Positions 44,665 to 64,000 of a DNA stretch of 64,000 nucleotides are shown here, piece after piece. Under the pieces are notes generated by a model that was not told where the DNA came from, did no database searches, and saw nothing but the letters and a program-made list of their open reading frames with translations. The stretch's first letter is position 1; each line of letters opens with the position of its first letter. Where the stretch lies: the UHGV virus genome UHGV-1368191; one strand, 5' to 3'. This stretch comes from a virus. Made by a program: the position numbers and the translations under genes.

Positions 44665-47556
44665 ATGACAGAGCAAGAATGGCTAAATGATAATCAGCTC
44701 TCATTGGATATATGGCATAAAAAGTACCAAGTTGACAATGAGAGCTTTGAGCACTGGCTTGATAGAGTAAGTGGAGGAAACCAAGATATAAGACAACTTA
44801 TTCTTGAAAAGAAATTCCTGTTTGGGGGTAGGATACTAGCAAGTAGAGGAGTGACTGACAGAAGGGTTACTTATAGTAACTGTTATGTAATTGCACCCCC
44901 AAGGGATAATATTGAATCTATCTTTGAAACTGCAAGTAAGTTAGCAAGAACTTATAGTTATGGAGGAGGCTGTGGTGTGGATATTAGCAACCTTAGACCT
45001 AAAGGTACTATAGTCCATAATGCAGCTAAAAGTACATCAGGTGCTATAAGTTTCATGGACTTCTATAGCTATGTTACTGGTCTTATAGGTCAGTCAGGCA
45101 GACGTGGGGCATTAATGATTAGTATTAGCTGTAAGCATCCTGACATTGAGGAGTTTATTAATCTTAAAACTAAAGCTGGAGTATGTGAAAAAGCTAACAT
45201 AAGTATCAGAGTATCTGATGAATTTATGGAAGCTGCTATACAGGATAGGGATTGGATAACTGAATTTACAAGTCCTGAGACTGGTACTATAACCAAGACT
45301 TTCAAGGCAAAAGATTTGTTAAAACTCCTAGCTAAAAGAAATTGGGAGTGGGCAGAACCTGGATTATTATATTGGGATAGAATTGCTCATTATAATATGC
45401 TTGATAATGATGATGCTTTTGCTTATGCAGGGGTCAACCCATGTCTTACAGGAGATAGCTTGATTCAAACAGTGGAAGGGGAAATTCCTATAAAGGAGTT
45501 AGTAGGAAGTACTCCATTTGTATATTGTATGGATTCTGATGGTAATCTTGCTATAAGAAAAGCTGTTAAGGTTTGGAAAACAAGAAAGAATGCTCAACTT
45601 GTTGAGGTTATAGCAGGTAAGGGAAGACTAATTTGTACTCCAGACCATAGAATATTTACTACTAATAGAGGTTGGGTTGAGGCTGCTAATCTTCAAAAAG
45701 GAGATAAAATAAAGGGTCTTAATAGACAAACTACAGGGCATAAATATTGTTCTGTAAGCCTTAGTGGCACTAAGTATGAGAAGGAACATAGATTTATTGC
45801 AAGACACTTCTATGATATAGAAGATATGGATGTTCATCATATTAATGATAATGGGTTTGACAATAGATTATCAAATCTTGAAGTTATCACTCATGAGGAA
45901 CATTCAAAACTTTCTAATACTGGAAGGGTTATTGAAGTTAATAGAGATGAAACTACTGGAAGGTATCTTCCTAAAGAAGAGCATACAGGTAGAACCTGTA
46001 GAAACTTAGGAAAGGAAGTAGGTATTAATTGGTATATTCAAGAAGTAAGAACTCTTGATTATACTGAGGATGTCTATGACATGACTATAGAGGACACTCA
46101 TAACTTCATTGCTAATGGGTTTGTAGTTCATAATTGTGCTGAAGAGCCATTACCAGCAGGAGGCTCATGCTTATTGGGTAGTATTAACCTTAGTGAATTT
46201 GTAACTAATCCATTTACTGATAAGGCTAAGATGAACTGGATTAGTCTTGTAGAAGCTGTAGAGATAGCTATCTCAGGTCTTAACGAAGTACTTGATGAAG
46301 GTATGATGTTACATCCTCTTCAAGAGCAAAGAGACTCTGTAAATAAGTGGAGACAAGTTGGCTTAGGTACAATGGGATTAGCTGATATGCTAATTAAATT
46401 AGGTATTGCTTACGGTTCTAATAAAGCTCTTGAGATAACTGAAAGAGTATATAAGCTTATAGCAGCAACAGCTGTGCAAGCATCTATCAAATTAGCTACT
46501 TTTTCAGGATGCTATCCTATGTGTGATAAGGAGAAGTTAGCTAATTCCTCGTTCATTAAATCATTAAATCTTCCAGATGAAATGATTAGTGATATAAGGA
46601 CTTATGGATTAAGAAATAGTCAACTTCTTACTTGTGCTCCTACAGGTAGTATTGCTACCATGTTGCAAGTATCTACTGGAGTAGAACCTAACTTTGCATT
46701 AAAGTACACAAGAAAGACTCAATCATTGAATGGTAAAGATACTTATTATGAAGTATTTGCTAAAATAGTAGATGACTATATTGGTGATAGATATGGTGAA
46801 GATATAAAACTTCCTGATTACTTTGTAGAGTCTAAGGATATAGCTTCTATTGATAGAATCAAAATGCAGGCAGTACTACAGAAGTACACTGATGCAAGTA
46901 TTAGTTCTACAATAAATCTTCCTAAAGAAGCTACAGTGGAAGATGTGTATAACATCTATGTAGAAGCATGGAAGCATGGACTTAAGGGATGTACAGTCTA
47001 CAGGAGTGGATGCTTTAGGGAAGGTATTCTTACTACTAAAAAGCCTATCAATATGCAAGCTGTAGGTGCTCCTAAGAGACCTAAAGAGCTTCCCTGTGAT
47101 ATTCATAAGGTAAAGGTGAAAGGAGAGAACTTCATAGTATGTGTGGGTCTTTATGAGGAGAAACCATATGAGGTATTTGTCTTTAGGCTCAAGAATAACA
47201 TAGAGCTTACTGACACAAGGGGAACCATAACCAAGCTCAAGAAGGGTGTATATAGCCTTGAGTCAAAGGATTTGATAATAAATAACCTCCTTAATACTGA
47301 TATTACTGTTGAGGAGAAGGCTGCCACTCTGTATAGTTCTATGCTTCTTAGGCATGGAATCTCTCTTAAGTATATTATTAAGACAGCAAGGAAAGTCAAT
47401 GATAATATAATCTCTTTCAGTAGTGCCATGTGTAGGGTACTATCTAAGTATTTACCTAAGGATACTGGGGAATCCTGTCCTGAATGTGGTGAGAAATTAA
47501 TAAGAACTGGAGGATGTGTCTCATGTCCTTCCTGTGGTTATAGTAGATGTGAGTAA
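44665..47556 (+). CDS. nrdJ: ribonucleotide reductase (class II/NrdJ-like) interrupted by an HNH-type intein
   Basis: SYGGGCGVDISNLRPKG, thiyl-radical NPC motif split by the intein (AGVNP|C...VVHN|CAEEPLPAGGSCLLGSINL), and C-terminal Cys zinc ribbon CPECGEKLIRTGGCVSCPSCGYSRCE. No nrdB gene nearby. Confidence 0.75.
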   Translation: MTEQEWLNDNQLSLDIWHKKYQVDNESFEHWLDRVSGGNQDIRQLILEKKFLFGGRILASRGVTDRRVTYSNCYVIAPPRDNIESIFETASKLARTYSYGGGCGVDISNLRPKGTIVHNAAKSTSGAISFMDFYSYVTGLIGQSGRRGALMISISCKHPDIEEFINLKTKAGVCEKANISIRVSDEFMEAAIQDRDWITEFTSPETGTITKTFKAKDLLKLLAKRNWEWAEPGLLYWDRIAHYNMLDNDDAFAYAGVNPCLTGDSLIQTVEGEIPIKELVGSTPFVYCMDSDGNLAIRKAVKVWKTRKNAQLVEVIAGKGRLICTPDHRIFTTNRGWVEAANLQKGDKIKGLNRQTTGHKYCSVSLSGTKYEKEHRFIARHFYDIEDMDVHHINDNGFDNRLSNLEVITHEEHSKLSNTGRVIEVNRDETTGRYLPKEEHTGRTCRNLGKEVGINWYIQEVRTLDYTEDVYDMTIEDTHNFIANGFVVHNCAEEPLPAGGSCLLGSINLSEFVTNPFTDKAKMNWISLVEAVEIAISGLNEVLDEGMMLHPLQEQRDSVNKWRQVGLGTMGLADMLIKLGIAYGSNKALEITERVYKLIAATAVQASIKLATFSGCYPMCDKEKLANSSFIKSLNLPDEMISDIRTYGLRNSQLLTCAPTGSIATMLQVSTGVEPNFALKYTRKTQSLNGKDTYYEVFAKIVDDYIGDRYGEDIKLPDYFVESKDIASIDRIKMQAVLQKYTDASISSTINLPKEATVEDVYNIYVEAWKHGLKGCTVYRSGCFREGILTTKKPINMQAVGAPKRPKELPCDIHKVKVKGENFIVCVGLYEEKPYEVFVFRLKNNIELTDTRGTITKLKKGVYSLESKDLIINNLLNTDITVEEKAATLYSSMLLRHGISLKYIIKTARKVNDNIISFSSAMCRVLSKYLPKDTGESCPECGEKLIRTGGCVSCPSCGYSRCE
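45442..46134 (+). mobile_element. intein (231 aa) with an HNH homing endonuclease, inserted at the RNR active-site NPC motif
   Basis: Starts with Cys (45442-45444), ends with HN (46129-46134), and is followed by Cys as the first host-protein residue. HNH box DVHHINDNGFDNRLSNLEVITHEEH. Confidence 0.7.
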
Positions 47557-53044: not shown

Positions 53045-54970
53045 ATGAGACTTATAAAACCATCATTTGAAATTTGGAAACAAGAACCTGGATTAGAAGG
53101 AATATATAAAGCCATTGAGAGAGCAGGGCGTGTATGCTATAGGTCTGAGGACAAGATAACAGAAGATAGTGCTAAGCCTTTTGTAGATAGAATGATTAAA
53201 GCAGGTCACTGCTATACAGGAGATACAGAGGTACTAACTGAGAATGGTTGGATTAAATTTAGAGATTATAATGGTGAAAAAGTTGCTGTAATAAATAAGG
53301 ATTGTTCATTTAAAGGTTTTGAAAATCCAAAAAGAATAGTAAGTTATTCTTATAAAGGTAATTTTTATTATTATCCTTCACTAGGTATAGAAGTTACTGA
53401 TGGACATAATATGTTTGGGATTTTCAGAGAAAGCAAAAACGACTTTTATAAAAACAATTCGTATTCTTTATTTAAATGCAATGGATATTATAAAGATAAT
53501 AATGGCAGAGAAAAAACTTTAGGAGAAAGAATGTTTAAAACTCCAAGACATTGTCTAAAAAGCAAGTCTTTAAATCCTTATGGAGAGTTAATTGGGTTTT
53601 GGTTAGGAGATGGATGCTATAGTCCTGAAACTAAAAATAAATTAGTGTTTCATTTAAAGAAGCCAAGAAAAATAGAATATCTAAAACAATTATGTGAAGA
53701 ACTGGGATATATTTTTGAAGAAAGAAAATCTAATTATTATACTGTTACTAATAATAATATAGGGAGTTCTTTTAATTCATTGTTTTATAATAATGGCAAA
53801 AGAATATCATTACAGTACTTTCCATCATTAGATATAGCTTTTTCTATTATTGAAGGACTAATAAATTCAGATGGTAGTAGAGCAAAAAACACTAAAACTA
53901 TAACTTTTACAAATACTAGTAAAAGTATAATTGATTGGTTATTAATATATGCTCCTATATGTGGTTATTCTATTTCTAACAGAGGTATTTCCCATAATAC
54001 TACTTTACATAATCCTGTATATAAAGTATTATTATTAGATACTAACTATACCTTAAATAATGATTCTAGAGATAAAGACTCTAAAGTTATTATTACTAAT
54101 AAAGTAGAGGAAGTCTATTGTGTTACAGTATCTACTGGATTAATAATGGTTAGGGGAATAAATGGGATTACTACTATTTGTGGTAATTGTGCTATGTTAG
54201 AACATGGTACTGTATATTTAGCTATTCCAATGACTACTTATGCTCCTGAGGCAGTTAATATATATCATAACAATTCCTATTCAAAAGTAAATAAATGTAA
54301 TGAATTTATATTTACTGATAAATACGGAGATAAGGTTGCAGCATGGTGCGTAACAACTAATTTAAGAGTTTTAGTAGAAAATGATTGCTTAGAAGATTTA
54401 GAATTTCTTTGTGAACCTACAGAGTTCCATGAGAAAAGAGTTTGTGTACACTTTGTATGTGATAGAGGTGTATCACATGAGTTTGTAAGGCATAGAGTAA
54501 TGTCTTTTGCTCAGGAAAGTACGAGGTATTGCAACTACTCTAAGGATAAGTTTAGTAATGAACTTACCTTTATTATTCCTTGTTGGTGTGATGATATTCC
54601 TGATGCTTTAAGCCTAAAAGATAGTATGGATGTAAAGAAGTTTGTTTGGGGAACTGATAATTTGGCTGCTACAGTTGAAGAAAAAGGTGTAGTGAATAGG
54701 CAAGTTAGTAAGTTTACTCAAAGATTTCTATATGAAATGCAAGGAGATGAAGATACATATATAGGGCTTATAGCTGCTGGATATAAACCACAGGAAGCAA
54801 GAGCCGTTCTCTCTAACTCCTTAAAGACAGAATTAGTAATGACTGGCTTTGTATCTGATTGGAAACATTTCTTTGAGTTAAGATGTGCTGACAATGCTCA
54901 TCCTCAAGCCAGGGAATTGGCTATTCCTTTAAGAGAAGAGTTTATTAAAAGGGATTATATTAATGAATGA
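53045..54970 (+). CDS. thyX: FAD-dependent thymidylate synthase ThyX interrupted by a LAGLIDADG intein
   Basis: IKAGH|C...ICGN|CAMLEHG, ThyX signature SHEFVRHRVMSFAQESTRY, C-terminal WKHFFELRCADNAHPQARELAIPL. Confidence 0.75.
   Translation: MRLIKPSFEIWKQEPGLEGIYKAIERAGRVCYRSEDKITEDSAKPFVDRMIKAGHCYTGDTEVLTENGWIKFRDYNGEKVAVINKDCSFKGFENPKRIVSYSYKGNFYYYPSLGIEVTDGHNMFGIFRESKNDFYKNNSYSLFKCNGYYKDNNGREKTLGERMFKTPRHCLKSKSLNPYGELIGFWLGDGCYSPETKNKLVFHLKKPRKIEYLKQLCEELGYIFEERKSNYYTVTNNNIGSSFNSLFYNNGKRISLQYFPSLDIAFSIIEGLINSDGSRAKNTKTITFTNTSKSIIDWLLIYAPICGYSISNRGISHNTTLHNPVYKVLLLDTNYTLNNDSRDKDSKVIITNKVEEVYCVTVSTGLIMVRGINGITTICGNCAMLEHGTVYLAIPMTTYAPEAVNIYHNNSYSKVNKCNEFIFTDKYGDKVAAWCVTTNLRVLVENDCLEDLEFLCEPTEFHEKRVCVHFVCDRGVSHEFVRHRVMSFAQESTRYCNYSKDKFSNELTFIIPCWCDDIPDALSLKDSMDVKKFVWGTDNLAATVEEKGVVNRQVSKFTQRFLYEMQGDEDTYIGLIAAGYKPQEARAVLSNSLKTELVMTGFVSDWKHFFELRCADNAHPQARELAIPLREEFIKRDYINE
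53210..54187 (+). mobile_element. intein (326 aa) with a double LAGLIDADG homing endonuclease in ThyX
   Basis: Starts with Cys56, contains LIGFWLGDGCYS and IIEGLINSDGSRA, and ends ...TTICGN followed by Cys. Confidence 0.65.
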
Positions 54971-57518: not shown

Positions 57519-57866
57519 ATGATAACTTTTAAAGAATATTTTAGTGATTGGATAAAGGTTATTAATAAGAAGGGACTGTTTAAAATTATGAGGTGGTTAA
57601 AAATAGTAAATCCTAATAACTTTTGTCCACCTATAGCAGAAAATTCCTACAAGTTTTTTCAAAACAAGAGTTGTAAGTATTTTCCTTGCCACTCTAATGT
57701 AAGTGAAAAGGACTTTAACTGTATGTTTTGCTACTGCCCTCTATATAGTAAGAAAGAGTGTGGGGGTAATTATCGGATATTAGAAAATGGGGTAAAGGAT
57801 TGCTCAGGTTGTGTAATACCTCATGGTAGAAATTCTTGGGGTATAATTCAAGGAAAATTAAAGTAG
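57519..57866 (+). CDS. Cys-rich protein whose N-terminus is paralogous to the N-terminus of the phage UDG
   Basis: MITFKEYFSDWIKVINKKGLFKIM...NNFCPPIAENSYKFFQ aligns with UDG MTLKEYFGDWLKVFDYKEFNSIL...LICPKKENVFRAFN. It then diverges into a C-x-C-rich tail and lacks the GxDPY catalytic loop. Confidence 0.45.
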   Translation: MITFKEYFSDWIKVINKKGLFKIMRWLKIVNPNNFCPPIAENSYKFFQNKSCKYFPCHSNVSEKDFNCMFCYCPLYSKKECGGNYRILENGVKDCSGCVIPHGRNSWGIIQGKLK

Positions 57867-58029
57867 TTATTGAAAATGTAAGGGATAGTAAGTCAAGTAC
57901 TTATTATCCCTTAATTTTTTTCAATATAAAGTTGTGTATCTCAACTGAAATAATTAATTTTGCAAAAACTAATTTTATTAAATATGTTAAGAGTTTATTG
58001 CACAGTAGTTACTCCTGAAATAAATGAAA

Positions 58030-61000
58030 TGGCGGAGAAAATAGGGTTACATCCACAAATAGTTAATAACCTAATTTGTGTATGGCAAACCCTTAATAAT
58101 AAACCAAATCAATATCCTTCAGAGCAAGAACTACAAGAATTAATTAAAAACAGAGAAAGCTATAATGACGCTTTTAAGTATGCTATTCCTTATTATACTA
58201 GAAGCGAAGAAAAAGGCTATGGAGTACACTTTGATGAGAATGATAACCTAGTTATTAATCCTTATCCAAAAGATACGCAGCTTAAGGATGCCTTAAATAC
58301 ACTTCCTTTAGGAGTTCCTGAAGATCTTAAATCTGAAATAACTACGTTTAAAGAGCTTTACATAGTTCAGTTATATGCTGAAAGATTATTACAGACAGAT
58401 CCTAATTATGATATACAGGATAATCCAAATGCATATATAGCAGCTGTGACTGCCTCTATTAGAATGCTTATGGAAGGCAAAAAGAGGCATCTATATGATA
58501 CTACTAGTACTCCTGTTCCTACAAATCCCCAAGTAGAAAGTGAACAGAAGACTACTAAGACTCCTACCATTGAAAAATCTATAGAGTATACACTTCCTGG
58601 ACAGGGAAAACAGACTTATACTATAAAGGGTACACATATTTATAATAAAGATGGTAAAGAGGTCTTTAAAGAAGATAGTGTACACAGAAATAGGATATTT
58701 GCCAATTTAGCGGTTAAAGAAGGAAGAGCAGTAGTGGTAGAACATGGAGATACTAGTTATGTAGTTAATAACAAAGGACATATTATCTCAGTTGCTACAG
58801 GTAAGATGATGCAGTGGGGAGAAGAAAATAGTAATAGAAAAGCTATTCTGGAGGAAGCTAGGAAAAAGTTCTCCTCCAAGATATCTACTCAACAAAGTCA
58901 AAAAACTGTAACTTCTACTTTAGATACTAGGACTATATCTAACAAGACAGCCTCTTTTGGAGTTACTATATCAGAAAACATAATGGGTAATTATTCTGAA
59001 TGGCTTAAAGATAACCCAAATGGTATAGTAGCTTACAGGGTGGACAAGGAACATTTTAATACACCACAGCTTGTTCAAAGAGGTATTATAGGTAATCCAT
59101 TTAATTGGCAAAAGTATGGTGAGGGGAAATCCCTTCAGATGTTCTATGATTGGTTAACCACAGGTAATAATTTTGGGGAGGAAAGTGCTGCTGAGGAATA
59201 TAGAAAGGCTATTATTAATAAAATACTAAGTTCTCCAGTGGGTACTCCTATTCTATACTACAAAGAGAAGTACCAGCCTAGTCACGCCACTATGATTGGG
59301 TATTTAATTAACCATAAAGATCTACTTAATACTGGGATTGTTTCCAGTACCGAAATCACTACTTCTAAAGGAACTGATTATCCCTCTAGGACTAGAGAAA
59401 ATGCTGATTGGTCTGATATAACTATGGCTTTATTTACTGTAAGGTCTAATGGAGAAACTTTAACAGCTCAGGCTGCTGGTTCAAAAGACAGAAAACAAAT
59501 TGGAAACAGAACTATAAGAAATACCAAGGATAAGTATATAGAAGCTGAACTTAGCGATGATTTAAATAACCAAGCTACAATTATTGCTAATAATCTTGAA
59601 AAACAAATAAAAGAGAAAGGTCTTCCTACCAAGGGAATAAAGCTTAATATAGCTGGTAACGGTATCTATTCTTTTAGTGAAGGAGTATCACAAGAATATC
59701 TTAATGATTTAGTTTCTAGTGTTATTCAGATTCTTCAACAAAAGGGTATTACTATATCTAAGATAAGAAGTGGAGGACAGACTGGTGTAGATGAGGCTGG
59801 TATTATAGCTGCCCAAAGATTGGGTATTCCTAATGAAGTACATACTACTGCTGATTTTAAATTTAGAGGCAGAGATGGACAAGATATAAGAGGAGAAGAG
59901 AGATTTAAGGCAAGATTTATAAATCAACAAAGCACTGAAGGTGATAACAATAGAAGAGATATCCAGATAAAAGGGGAAAACATTTCTAGTAAGGGTTCAA
60001 CTTTTGCTAAAATGTTGACTAATCCTGGGAATGATCTTACAGTAGTCTATAAAGGCAAGACATTTAGGAATGCTGAACATGCTTATCAAACATGGAAATC
60101 AGGTGAATTTGATGAAGCTGCTTTTAATAGTACCGCTTTTAAACCTGTAGGCAAAAAGCCTGTAAATAAGTCCTCAAATTTTCAAACTATGGTAGAGATA
60201 CTCACTGCCAAGTTAGAGCAACATCCTGAATTGATTCAGGGCATCAATGACAGAAGGGGCATTGAGTATCTAAATAGGTCATGGCATGAAGTTACTGGTG
60301 ATGAATACTGGGAAAAACAAGGTAACTTTATGAAGGCTCTTATCCAAGCTTATAATAGAGTTAATTCTGACCAAAATACACAACAGGAAGAGGGAACTCC
60401 TGAAGACCTTCCTGAAATAGGTATTCCTGAAGCACTTGCAAGCCAGGTACAGGTAAATAAGGAAAGTCCAAGAGCTATTCTTTCAAGGCAAATGAGTCCT
60501 CAAGAAATAACTAGGAGGGAGGATATGATAGCCAGGGATTTCTCTGATATTATTAATGATGCCCTAAGTGACATGCAAGAAGGTCTTAGAAATGATATAG
60601 AGAATGAAAAAGACCCACTAAGAAGGCTGCAATTATCCCAGAAATTAAATGCACTGGAAGATCCTGTCAAAGGTAGAAGAGCCGCTATAACAGAGCTTGG
60701 AATCGAGGAAATCTTGAATAGAATGAAAGAAGAATATCAAGAATGGATTGACATGGACAGCTCTGAGATAGACTCTTATCTAGGAAAAGGGAAAGCTGAC
60801 TATGTAAAACAAGCTTATCAAAAAGTTCTTGATAATTTTGATCTCCTGTTTGATGAGGCAAGCTCTATGATAGAACAGAAAGAGCACTTAAGAATAACGA
60901 GAGGAGATACTAAAGAAGTACAGAATACAGAAGACCAAGAACAAGTTTTAGAGGAGGAACTTGGTGATGATGATAGTGGTAACAGAGTAAGTGGGAATGA

Positions 61001-64000
61001 AGGGTATACATTCAAAATTAGATTTGTGGATCCTTTTACTTCTATTAGGGCTGAAACTAGGAAAGTCCTTAGTGACATAAAACAGATTGATACAGAAGGG
61101 AATGTAGCCACTGATGATTTAGGTAGAACTATTTATGTTAGGGAAGACTTTGCTCACTCAGCACTGCTGGCTTCCCTTAATTGGATGGATAACCCTAATG
61201 ATTTCAGTGTTAAGAATGCAGATGGTACTTATAGCTTACCCGCATTGGAAAATGCCGCTATGATATATCCTTGGATTAATCAGGTAATAGAGGAATTAGA
61301 GGCTGATCCAAACCTGATAAGTGTCTTCTATAATGATTTCAGAAAAGACTATATATCTTATTGGATGCAAAGAGATGGAAAAGTATTCCCTATGAATTCT
61401 CCTATAGACTATGAAGGAACTTTTAGGGGAATACAACGTAATTATGAGAGTGGCTCTCCACAGGATGATGACTCTATTTTTGATGTTAACCTGAAAATCA
61501 GTAAAGCTAATATAAGGAAAGCCAGAACCCTACTTACTAATGTAAGAAAGAGCCTTAGTAAAGCTGTGTATAGTGAGGATATGGAAACTATAGTTCCTTC
61601 TATACAAAAACTTCTCAATATAATTGGATTTAGCTCTACTAACCTGAATTTGACCCAATTAAAGGATATAAGTAATGTTGGGTTAGCGAACACAATCCTT
61701 GATAGTATAGCTAGAGTACTTGATAACAGTGATACTCTTCAAGAAGGACAACACTATGTTGATACTGTTAGAGACCCTCTTAATATAATAGCTAAATTAG
61801 TAGGCAAAGTTACTGAACTGGATGCTCAAGTAACATTTAGGCAAGGTAAGAACTCATATCCTTCATATGCTGTTCCAAATTATATAGAAACTGTGTTTAA
61901 AAAGCTCCTTAAAAAGGATGATGACCAGAGGAATGAGTATTTACAAAATGAATTTGGAAAGTATGCCTGGTTCAAGAATAAAAACGGGGAATGGAATAAT
62001 GAATGGCTTAGGCTTATAGAAGAGGATCCCAATGTGAGAGACATGGTAACCCTGGTTAATATGTTCAATATGGAAGGAGTTGACTATGAAAACTGGTCAC
62101 CTAGTCTTATTACTACAGGGTTCATGAATATGTATTTTGCTATTGATGAGAATCCAGACTTGGATACCCAATATGGATATTATAACTTCCCCATATTCTC
62201 TGATACAAAGATGGCCACTTTTGTCAAATTCATTAAATATACTGGTGACTATAGAAGTAAATTAATCCCATTATATAGAAAACTAGTTAATCAAGAATTA
62301 AAGAGAATAAGACTGGTAGAGGATAGGGCTAAAAAGGGTATTCCTCCAATAAGTAATTTTGATAAAAGAGGAAAAAGATTCTGTTTTCTTCCTGAACTTA
62401 ATACTCTTAAATTAGATTTTGAGGGTAAAGAAATGACTCTCCTTGATATAGTGAGAGAGTTAAATAGGAGGGGTAATGTAAAGAGTATTGATGCCTACAT
62501 TGATAGTGCTATAAACTGGACTATAGATAAACTGGCTGATGACTTTATCTCTAATCATAAAGAGGTAGTAAGTGATGAGAGTCTTGATAAAATAAAAAAG
62601 GCTACTGGAGTAAAGAGTGATGAGGCTGCTGTTGACAAGATTAGGGAATATGTATGGAATCAAATATTCGCTACTTCACAAATGGTTCAAATGGTAACTA
62701 CTGACTTAGCCTATTATGCGAGTGATACTGATTTTCAAAAGAGATTTAAGGAGGTATATGCAGCTGGAACTAAGTTGAATACTAACAGTAAATATGGAAG
62801 AAAGACAGAAAGAACTGTCTATATCAGGGACAATATAGTAACTTCTCCTACTTATATCCCTCTTAAGGAGATGTTTACTAAAGCTTATAAAGAGGAAAGA
62901 ATAACCAAGATGGATTTGGATTCTATTCTTTATAAGTTCAGAAACATAAATAGTGTAGATGGACAAGCTTATAGAAGTTTAAGTTCTTATAGATCTATAC
63001 TGGATATGCTAGGAAGGTGGACTCCTAAGATGGAGGAAGCTTTTGATAGATTAAATAAAGGCAATTGGGATATTAGTGACTTTGATATAATATGGCAGAC
63101 TATTAAACCTTTTGTCTATGGCCAAGTTGAGACTCCTGATGGGTTAGGGGGACTACTAAGAACCCCTCATCAAAACAAGAACTCAGAGTTTCTACTATTA
63201 GCTACCTATCAAGTCCTAGGAACAGTATTGAATAACTCTCCACAATTAAGAGGACTTAATAAGTTCATGGAAACGAATAATATTGATGTAGTCCAATTTG
63301 AATCTGCTGTGAAAGTAGGTTGTAGTGGAGTTATAGACATTAATGTAAGTCCTTCAAAAATTAAAAAGGCATCTGAAGACAGATTTATAGAGGTTAATGG
63401 AGAGAAATATGATGTTCCTGATATCAGTGGGTTGAACATCAGTAAAGCTTTTGACCAGATAAAGGAGTACTTTGATAATAGACTGGAAAGAGGCAGTATT
63501 ACACAGCAGGAGTATAATAATATCATTGATTACCTTAAGCCAACAGAAACTGAGGTATTTAATACCTTAGTTGAGAATACAAGAAAGAAGATTAATGATA
63601 CTGATGTTCTTACTAAGGATAATTACAACAAGACTACAGTGCATGAAATAAGCTATGATGATTACATGATAGCCCAGCCTACTCCAGAGCATCTGTTTGA
63701 TGTTGAATCTATAATAGGTTCTCAGTTCAGGAACCTTATATACTCAGATCTCCCTGAAGATATAGAAATTAATCTTGGAGATATCACTATTAAGGGAAGG
63801 GACAATGTAAAGAGATATTATTTCTCTCTTATGGTTGAGAACCTCTTGGATTCATATAAAGAGGTCAATGAGGTTTTTTCAAGCATAGAAACTCTTCAGA
63901 ACAGGCTACTTTCTATTATTAAAGGCAACCCTAAATATAATAGGGATTTGCTTAATGCCCTGGAAATAGTTGAAGTTAATGGAAGAAAGGTATTCAATGT
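58030..64000 (+). CDS. giant protein, with at least 1990 codons in the window and continuing beyond it. Putative crAss-type giant virion (ejected) protein with N-terminal SLOG-like and NADAR domains.
   Basis: Hand translation from ATG 58030 shows no stop codon through 64000. The ORF track omitted it because it is open-ended. SLOG-like motif KIRSGGQTGVDEAGIIAAQRLGIP at about 59755-59830. NADAR motifs FRNAEHAYQTWKS, MVEILTAKLEQHPELIQ and GDEYWEKQGNF at about 60030-60360. Confidence 0.7.

Follow-up and report, generated by a model that had tools for sequence, protein, structure and literature searches.

Which protein is encoded by the giant open reading frame (ORF) that runs off the end of a stretch of DNA from the UHGV virus genome UHGV-1368191, and why would it carry domains related to ADP-ribose (ADPr)? 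The window, that is, the whole stretch of 64,000 nucleotides (nt) that we analyzed, had been interpreted from its letters alone. This sequence-only reading took the ORF for a giant virion-packaged protein of a crAss-like phage, with SLOG-like and NADAR domains near its N-terminus and a possible role in counter-defence. Sequence comparison now shows that the ORF encodes the virion RNA polymerase of a crAss-like phage of the Steigviridae type, the orthologue of gp50 of crAss001. Four domains are inserted behind its conserved N-terminal leader, and near-identical phages differ in which of these domains they carry. The polymerase identity, the insertion, two further domains and the module turnover between near-identical phages were absent from the sequence-only reading.

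Extent and identity of the giant ORF

Within the window the giant ORF occupies positions 57984-64000 on the + strand and encodes residues 1-2005 of 3,042 amino acids (aa). This assignment is based on the lack of an in-frame stop, on the public contig L015 and on the matches to gp50 and to a solved polymerase described below. Residues are numbered here from the ATG at 57984, and the residue numbers of the sequence-only reading correspond to ours minus 15. The sequence downstream of the window was supplied by L015 (Logan ERR3450974_558; 96,222 nt), which was retrieved by exact look-up of the small upstream protein encoded at 57519-57866 and is identical to the window at each of the 16,482 nt that the two have in common. 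On this contig the complete gene extends from window-equivalent position 57984 to 67112, and the next gene is gp49-like and encodes 1,319 aa. Six contigs from three repositories carry exactly this 3,042-aa protein, annotated only as 'hypothetical protein'. Exact 36-mers from the window end had no match in viral_contigs or metagenome_contigs, and megablast of the giant ORF against phage records found nothing.

In a translated search of phage genomes, residues 816-1997 matched gp50 of Bacteroides phage crAss001, annotated as 'putative RNA polymerase', with 34% identity over ~1,180 aa (E 3e-69). The first part of the polymerase body, residues 816-2005 (60429-64000, + strand), is homologous to residues 67-1338 of gp50. 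The full ORF also matches the solved polymerase gp66 of phage phi14:2 (PDB 6VR4; E 1.1e-24, residues 2014-2304 against 1227-1524), as does crAss001 gp50 (E 6e-32). When only the window part of the ORF, or its last 705 aa, was compared with PDB sequences, no match to a solved polymerase was obtained, because the conserved core starts at residue 2014, nine residues past the window edge. The catalytic DFDVD likewise lies beyond the window, at residue 2153 (window-equivalent 64440, read from the identical L015), and aligns with the single conserved DxDxD (DFDVD) of crAss001, cr128_1 and PhiCrAssBcn1.

The gene neighborhood agrees with this identity. The window and crAss001 have a common gene order of DNA polymerase I, flavin-dependent thymidylate synthase, small genes and giant gene, and in the compared genomes a gene of about 1,320-1,350 aa follows the giant gene at a conserved position. 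The DNA polymerase of the window is 87% identical to that of the uncultured phage cr128_1 (Steigviridae, Asinivirinae) and 71% identical to that of crAss001. Thus, the giant protein shares with phi14:2 gp66 and crAss001 gp50 an orthologous polymerase body, the position after the replication genes, the leader and the DFDVD motif. We also considered gp49 of crAss001, since the solved polymerase has been called 'a homologue of gp49' in the literature (PMC10172136). We rejected this assignment: gp49 had no match in the PDB, and the direct sequence search points to gp50 instead.

The sequence-only reading had suggested a giant protein packaged in virions, and this agrees with the finding of a syntenic orthologue of gp50, which was itself detected in crAss001 virions by mass spectrometry (PMC10172136). 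[quoted passage not shown] From these orthologues, crAss001 gp50 and phi14:2, we infer that the present polymerase would be packaged and injected as well.

The open frame itself is well defined. The last in-frame stop before the giant ORF is TAA 57951-57953, and none follows up to 64000. The other two frames of the same stretch contain 169 and 335 stops, which excludes a chance origin; by an arithmetic estimate, 2,005 open codons would occur with a probability of roughly 1e-75 at ~8% stops per codon. The sequence-only reading had described an uninterrupted frame from an ATG at 58030 to the window edge. The frame is indeed uninterrupted, and no stop or frameshift had been overlooked in the hand translation, but the ATG in question is at 58029-58031, and a literal translation begun at 58030 is full of stops. 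The ORF is also absent from the program-made ORF list, as had been stated, because this listing omits ORFs that run off the sequence. All four motifs quoted at the time are present, at residues 578-601, 679-687, 726-735 and 757-765 counted from the methionine used then. The real start, as judged from sequence conservation, is the upstream in-frame ATG at 57984, which adds 15 residues (MLRVYCTVVTPEINE). They can be aligned to the N-terminus that crAss001 gp50 and its relatives have conserved, and an independent gene call on L015 likewise begins at this ATG.

Four domains between the leader and the polymerase body

Residues 1-75 (57984-58208, + strand) form a conserved N-terminal leader that is also present in orthologues without the insertion. 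Its sequence CTVVTPEINEMAEKIG..VNNLICVWQTLNNK..YPSEQEL aligns with CITTNSTIEELAAKLQ..VKGLVELWQDKNNK..YPTASEL of crAss001, and the leader is also found in the homologues P0022, P0024, P0034 and P0026. In crAss001 gp50 (2,412 aa) and in the cr128_1 orthologue (2,431 aa) a leader of ~70 residues runs straight into the polymerase body. In the window protein, leader and body are separated by ~740 aa that contain four domains, here named B, C, SLOG and NADAR, and the protein is therefore ~630 aa longer than gp50 (3,042 vs 2,412 aa). While crAss001 and cr128_1 have nothing at this slot, PhiCrAssBcn1 carries only a SLOG domain. The effector domains had been placed near the N-terminus. They are present there, but they lie in the insertion after the conserved leader and not at the true N-terminus. 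Local BLAST against the collected homologues resolved the insertion into a chain of modules, each of which occurs elsewhere in other company. The composition profile gave an even guanine-cytosine (GC) content of 0.33-0.39 across the insertion and thus no sign of a recent foreign origin.

Residues 658-792 (59955-60359, + strand) form the NADAR cassette, which is delimited by fold model, profiles, catalytic pattern and a 405-nt indel. Both sequence and structure prediction indicate a NADAR fold, probably of the His type, whose catalytic pattern is intact. The AlphaFold2 model, built from 24 sequences, reached a predicted local distance difference test (pLDDT) score of 92.6. A Foldseek search with this model returned YbiA (2b3w; E 9.7e-5, template modelling (TM) score 0.66) and the NADAR-ADP-ribose complex 8bau (probability 0.99, TM 0.62), and the remaining matches, all with TM below 0.25, were noise. 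A profile search of the PDB at E<=10 returned exactly two sequences, E. coli YbiA and the Phytophthora NADAR. The three sequence blocks from which a NADAR domain had been proposed therefore belong to a NADAR fold with catalytic Glu and Lys and a probable phage-type His, and structure prediction recovered that fold.

The catalytic pattern consists of E698 (60075), K705 (60096), H768 (60285), D773 (60300) and W776 (60309). E698 and K705 are invariant in 24 homologues, and E698-x6-K705 aligns with E43/K50 of the solved P. nicotianae NADAR (SEHYFQAQK in YbiA, SEQYFMKRK in 8bau). These Glu and Lys residues are conserved throughout the NADAR superfamily and required for activity (PMC11543638). The spacing H768-x4-D773-x2-W776 equals that of E125/D130/W133 of the solved enzyme; the residues were mapped by spacing and conservation, and HMMER puts a gap there. 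H768 is invariant in the homologue alignment A2. The third catalytic residue, a charged one that lies in the last strand with Asp and Trp behind it, is Glu in the YbiA type, Asp in the DarG1 type and His in the phage type (PMC11543638), and His at that position is typical of phage NADARs such as T4 gp30.3 (PMC11543638, PMC11125620).

The window domain resembles AdfN/T4 gp30.3 in its NADAR fold, in Glu-x6-Lys and probably in having His instead of the Glu of the YbiA family. However, these phage enzymes are small stand-alone proteins made after infection, whereas the window NADAR is a domain inside a polymerase and predicted to be packaged in the virion. DarG1, the antitoxin of DarTG1, has the same fold and the conserved Glu and Lys (E88/K95 of the E. 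coli C7 enzyme), but enzymes of this type have Asp as the third catalytic residue and a conserved Lys115, while the window NADAR probably has His there and has no DarT partner.

The domain belongs to a divergent NADAR subfamily with the motif LTNPGN..FRNAEHAYQTWKSGEFD. Pfam NADAR was matched at E<=1 by 14 of the 16 close homologues (best 1.4e-5), and one close homologue has been named DUF1768, the older name of NADAR, by NCBI. The family profile also reaches P0053, a small phage-type protein (E 1e-11) that has a recorded Pfam NADAR match and touches Pfam Phage_30_3. TIGR02464 weakly matches P0053 and the relative P0026. No record of the phage collection was matched by tblastn with the NADAR domain. 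Given that the domain varies between strains and is part of a virion protein, we judge a metabolic role of the YbiA type, as an N-glycosidase of riboflavin intermediates, to be very unlikely. A fragment with a NADAR-like motif (P0049, NCBI) lies on a crAss-sized contig of 103.5 kilobases (kb) in a Segatella bryantii assembly, a possible host clue for the relatives.

Upstream of NADAR lies a YpsA-type SLOG domain (residues 455-650; 59346-59933, + strand), assigned by Pfam cpYpsA and PHROG 10774. The Pfam model (PF12694) scored 32.4 bits against a cut-off of 26.2 when the isolated residues 441-650 were searched, and 25.8 bits, just under the cut-off, with all 2,005 aa scanned; PHROG 10774 matched with E 8e-18. 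The Gly-rich stretch previously read as a SLOG loop is part of this domain: the nucleotide loop S596-GGQTGVD-603 (59769-59792) is kept in P0022, P0024 and P0026. The cpYpsA match comes in two swapped pieces, with profile positions ~45-101 aligned to residues 458-516 and profile positions 1-23, which contain the SGGQTG loop, aligned to 596-603. The same swapped order was seen in P0022 and P0026, and the domain therefore appears permuted relative to Pfam's 'circularly permuted' model. The SLOG domain is 54% identical to the insert that the PhiCrAssBcn1 polymerase carries at this position, and ~31% identical to stand-alone proteins of ICP1 and other phages annotated as 'molybdenum cofactor carrier'. 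No PDB sequence was matched by the SLOG segment.

Like NADAR, the other two domains gave confident models. Domain C (residues 314-454; 58923-59345, + strand) has the signature GNPF...W...YR...YY...SHA and, at E<=1e-3, recurs in 241 cluster representatives, most of which are proteins of 2,000-7,500 aa. The most recurrent weak Pfam match among diverse copies is DUF4326 (PF14216), found in 4 of 34 with a best E of 0.024 and significant in none; P0191 also matches it weakly (E 0.032), and the window copy has no Pfam DUF4326 match. Judging from these sequence matches, domain C is possibly a divergent DUF4326, a family described with a rhodanese/phosphatase-like fold (PMC9503650). Domain B (residues 197-308; 58572-58907, + strand) has, in its model, three strands on either side of a helix, with a long helix at the end. 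Its copies, 50-70% identical, occur at varied positions in 12 other large proteins. Domain B had no Pfam or PHROG match. We take its layout of three strands, helix and three strands to be WWE-like. Weak, non-significant matches were seen to the WWE domains of HUWE1, TRIP12, PARP11 and ZAP, which were solved with ADP-ribose or ATP. If domain B were indeed WWE-like, this would suit the ADPr theme.

The N-terminal 830 aa had no match in NCBIfam. Residues 76-196 (58209-58571), between the leader and domain B, had no homologue in any search. They contain LKDALNTLPLGVPEDL, a faint echo of the junction TPEDLPEIGIPEALASQ after NADAR and of the junction ALSPSFEAP in crAss001 gp50.

Module turnover and surroundings of the gene

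The 90%-identity cluster of the 3,042-aa protein also contains shorter variants. Four of them, with 2,907 aa and found on six contigs, lack residues 657-791, which is exactly the NADAR domain, and are 94% identical before the gap and 98% after it. One variant of 2,647 aa lacks residues ~249-646, i.e. half of B together with C and SLOG, but has retained NADAR. In the DNA, the variants with and without NADAR differ by a clean in-frame indel of 405 nt (59955-60359), flanked by the hexamer AATAGA at 59949-59954 and 60354-60359. The indels respect domain borders and preserve the frame.

More distant relatives also differ at this slot. It holds SLOG alone in PhiCrAssBcn1 and P0022, domain B alone in P0034, and NADAR, SLOG and DUF7831 in P0026, where NADAR is of the His type and above the Pfam cut-off. 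The polymerase orthologue of L008 (IMGVR_UViG_3300021255_000040, 123 kb; L008:6941-18127) has 3,728 aa and an extension ahead of the body with Kinase-PolyVal (268-438), a superfamily 1 (SF1) helicase (490-923) and a NADAR-like domain (1041-1144). Since both near-identical and distant phages differ in their modules, the cargo is dispensable for polymerase function and subject to fast turnover. These comparisons of sequence indicate that the modules are accessory and separately mobile and that the cargo at this site differs in other crAss-like polymerases.

Related domains were also observed in other giant ORFs. In L009 (L009:1-11081, SLOG) and L013 (L013:1-11018, DUF7831 and NADAR-like) they lie at the C-terminal end of giant ORFs that are open through the entire 10 kb upstream flank and comprise at least ~3,670 aa. 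In L003/L012 (JGI 3300033463, IMGVR_UViG_3300033463_000049, 102 kb) the frame of L003:50-16298 is open for ~16 kb bar dozens of TAG codons, with a NADAR-like domain ~3,300 codons into the giant gene. By its sequence, this is a TAG-recoded crAss-like phage, in which the gene caller split the giant gene into many small ORFs.

Upstream of the giant ORF lies a terminator-like hairpin on the + strand (57879-57913), with a 15-pair stem followed by the T run ATTTTTTT; one such site was observed against 0.2 expected in shuffles. The hairpin closes the upstream gene (57519-57866), and the giant ORF therefore begins a new unit. Between the hairpin and the start, TAATTTTG at 57955-57962, 22 nt upstream of ATG 57984, is a candidate -7 promoter element. 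It fits TAnnTTTG, which we take to be the Bacteroidetes -7 promoter consensus.

Two other genes of the window have unusual architectures. The large subunit of ribonucleotide reductase (44665-47556, 963 aa) contains an intein that interrupts it and includes an HNH endonuclease; PHROG HNH matches cover residues ~325-455, and the identical gene of L015 has Pfam Intein_splicing and HNH_3. The ORF at 53045-54970 (641 aa) is about twice as long as ThyX of crAss001 and cr128_1. Its C-terminal part is the flavin-dependent thymidylate synthase (Thy1), and its N-terminal 330 aa weakly match a PhoH-like family.

A proposed role for the domains carried by the polymerase

We consider it somewhat probable that the injected polymerase delivers a swappable ADPr-processing cassette for counter-defence, in which NADAR would remove ADPr from incoming DNA or transcripts, and SLOG, perhaps together with domain C, would handle ADPr nucleotides. 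With the polymerase as delivery vehicle, the cassette would arrive ready-made alongside the DNA, ahead of any phage gene expression; it would be in the cell from the first moment, because the polymerase is predicted to be packaged and injected. NADAR, tethered to the enzyme that must read the modified DNA, might strip ADPr from guanine on the phage DNA as it enters, or on the earliest transcripts, where host ADP-ribosyltransferases of the DarT1 kind would have added it. SLOG and perhaps domain C might bind or degrade ADPr-containing nucleotides, for which released ADPr and the cyclic ADP-ribose isomers of TIR/Thoeris-type systems are candidate substrates. The modules would then be retained or dropped according to local host defences.

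NADAR is read here as a putative de-ADP-ribosylase because the tested NADARs clear guanine-ADPr and phage NADARs rescue growth against DarTG1. Removal of guanine-ADPr, from RNA as well as from DNA, has been shown for NADARs that include the T4 enzyme (PMC11125620, PMC11833690). Phage NADARs (AdfN) defeat DarTG1, which ADP-ribosylates phage DNA, as shown for the T4, Bas32 and Bas60 proteins (PMC11825919). Moreover, for SLOG-NADAR-DUF4326 fusions of DNA viruses, a role in the processing of ADPr derivatives has been predicted (PMC9503650). The counter-defence idea of the sequence-only reading agrees with this published work (PMC11825919, PMC9503650), from which we infer the biological role.

Several observations weigh against this proposal. 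NADAR-less variants are as frequent as NADAR-bearing ones, with 6 contigs each. The window copy of NADAR scores only 14.5-15.8 bits with the Pfam model (PF08719), against a cut-off of 35.1. Neither domain B nor domain C has a significant fold match; the best Foldseek matches of B are WWE domains at E 0.2-0.5, and C has no confident family. T4 NADAR by itself failed to protect cells against DarT1 (PMC11125620), so that an enzyme active in vitro may still give no protection. A SLOG domain of the YpsA type can also serve as a sensor instead of an enzyme (PMC9503650). Finally, the cassette could be cleaved off before packaging.

A wider version of the proposal, which we hold only tentatively and regard as rather doubtful, is that the slot after the leader is a general loading dock for counter-defence enzymes. 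The tethered NADAR would then erase ADPr co-transcriptionally from the template or the nascent RNA, and the variants would track the defences of gut Bacteroidales.

Alternatively, SLOG, NADAR and C might degrade only soluble ADPr-derived messengers or toxins at entry, such as cyclic ADPR isomers and ADPr-1''-phosphate, with nucleic acids left untouched and the polymerase merely delivering the enzymes. The published prediction for viral SLOG/NADAR/DUF4326 fusions (PMC9503650) is in line with this, as is the presence of the domains together in one cassette here and, reordered, in P0026. The same modules also occur in other giant proteins that are apparently no polymerases, such as those of L009 and L013 and those from the survey of domain C. 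However, guanine-ADPr in DNA or RNA is the substrate of all NADARs tested to date (PMC11125620, PMC11833690, PMC11825919), and the literature searched contained no NADAR activity on a soluble immune signal. In addition, the slot can hold NADAR without SLOG (L008, P0220) or SLOG without NADAR (PhiCrAssBcn1, P0218); since each occurs without the other, the two need not form one pathway. We therefore regard a purely signal-erasing cassette as unlikely.

Even less probable is a housekeeping function in transcription without counter-immunity, in which the domains would trim 5′ caps derived from nicotinamide adenine dinucleotide (NAD) or ADPr-linked RNA ends, or clear by-products of RNA repair. The physical fusion of the cassette to an RNA polymerase would suit such a function, and RNA-processing by-products have been listed as possible substrates of viral NADARs (PMC9503650). 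On the other hand, the orthologous polymerases of the close relatives crAss001 and cr128_1 work without the insertion, variants that are 94-98% identical lose single modules, and NADARs are inactive on RNA and DNA that are ADP-ribosylated at phosphate ends (PMC11833690). Lastly, decaying hitch-hikers, or a structural spacer that aids packaging or ejection without catalysis, would fit modules that are dispensable in nature and score low against curated families, but we find this highly improbable, as homologues with identities down to 22-50% show no or almost no variation in the catalytic Glu, Lys, His, Asp and Trp of NADAR or in the SGGQTGxD loop of SLOG, every modelled domain folds with high confidence, and the indels keep the frame and follow domain borders.

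The proposed counter-defence cassette can be set beside known systems. The viral fusions of YpsA-like SLOG, NADAR, Macro and DUF4326 domains (PMC9503650) have a similar domain set and a predicted early action against NAD+/ADPr immunity. Those versions are typically stand-alone, and crAss phages are unmentioned there, whereas here the domains are embedded in a polymerase and the DUF4326 label of domain C is tentative. Polyvalent proteins (PMC5512222), T4 Alt and the N4 virion RNA polymerase are likewise giant virion-delivered proteins with shuffled, unrelated effector domains. The present protein has this polyvalent trait, with four modules that are each found in other contexts and relatives that carry Kinase-PolyVal. 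It differs from polyvalent proteins in that its scaffold is a two-barrel crAss-type RNA polymerase and its cargo sits at one defined slot behind the leader; PMC5512222 mentions neither crAss phages nor SLOG domains. The polymerase scaffold, counter-defence by phage NADARs, the predicted SLOG-NADAR-DUF4326 fusions and the polyvalent concept are therefore already known. In the literature searched, whose coverage was incomplete so that an earlier description is possible, no link of these themes to crAss-like phages or their polymerase was found. What appears to be new is the defined slot in an injected crAss-type polymerase, with swappable ADPr-related cargo and natural near-isogenic variants.

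These results suggest a strategy in which immune-disarming enzymes ride in on the very polymerase that starts the infection. Phages that are 94-98% identical in the polymerase and differ by exactly one domain constitute a natural experiment, by which both the role of virion-delivered NADAR and SLOG and the weight of ADPr-based immunity in gut Bacteroidales become directly testable. As the complete protein is recorded only as 'hypothetical protein', crAss-like polymerase genes merit annotation domain by domain. If the slot does serve as a general loading dock, the polymerase would carry its own lesion eraser instead of stalling on an ADP-ribosylated template.

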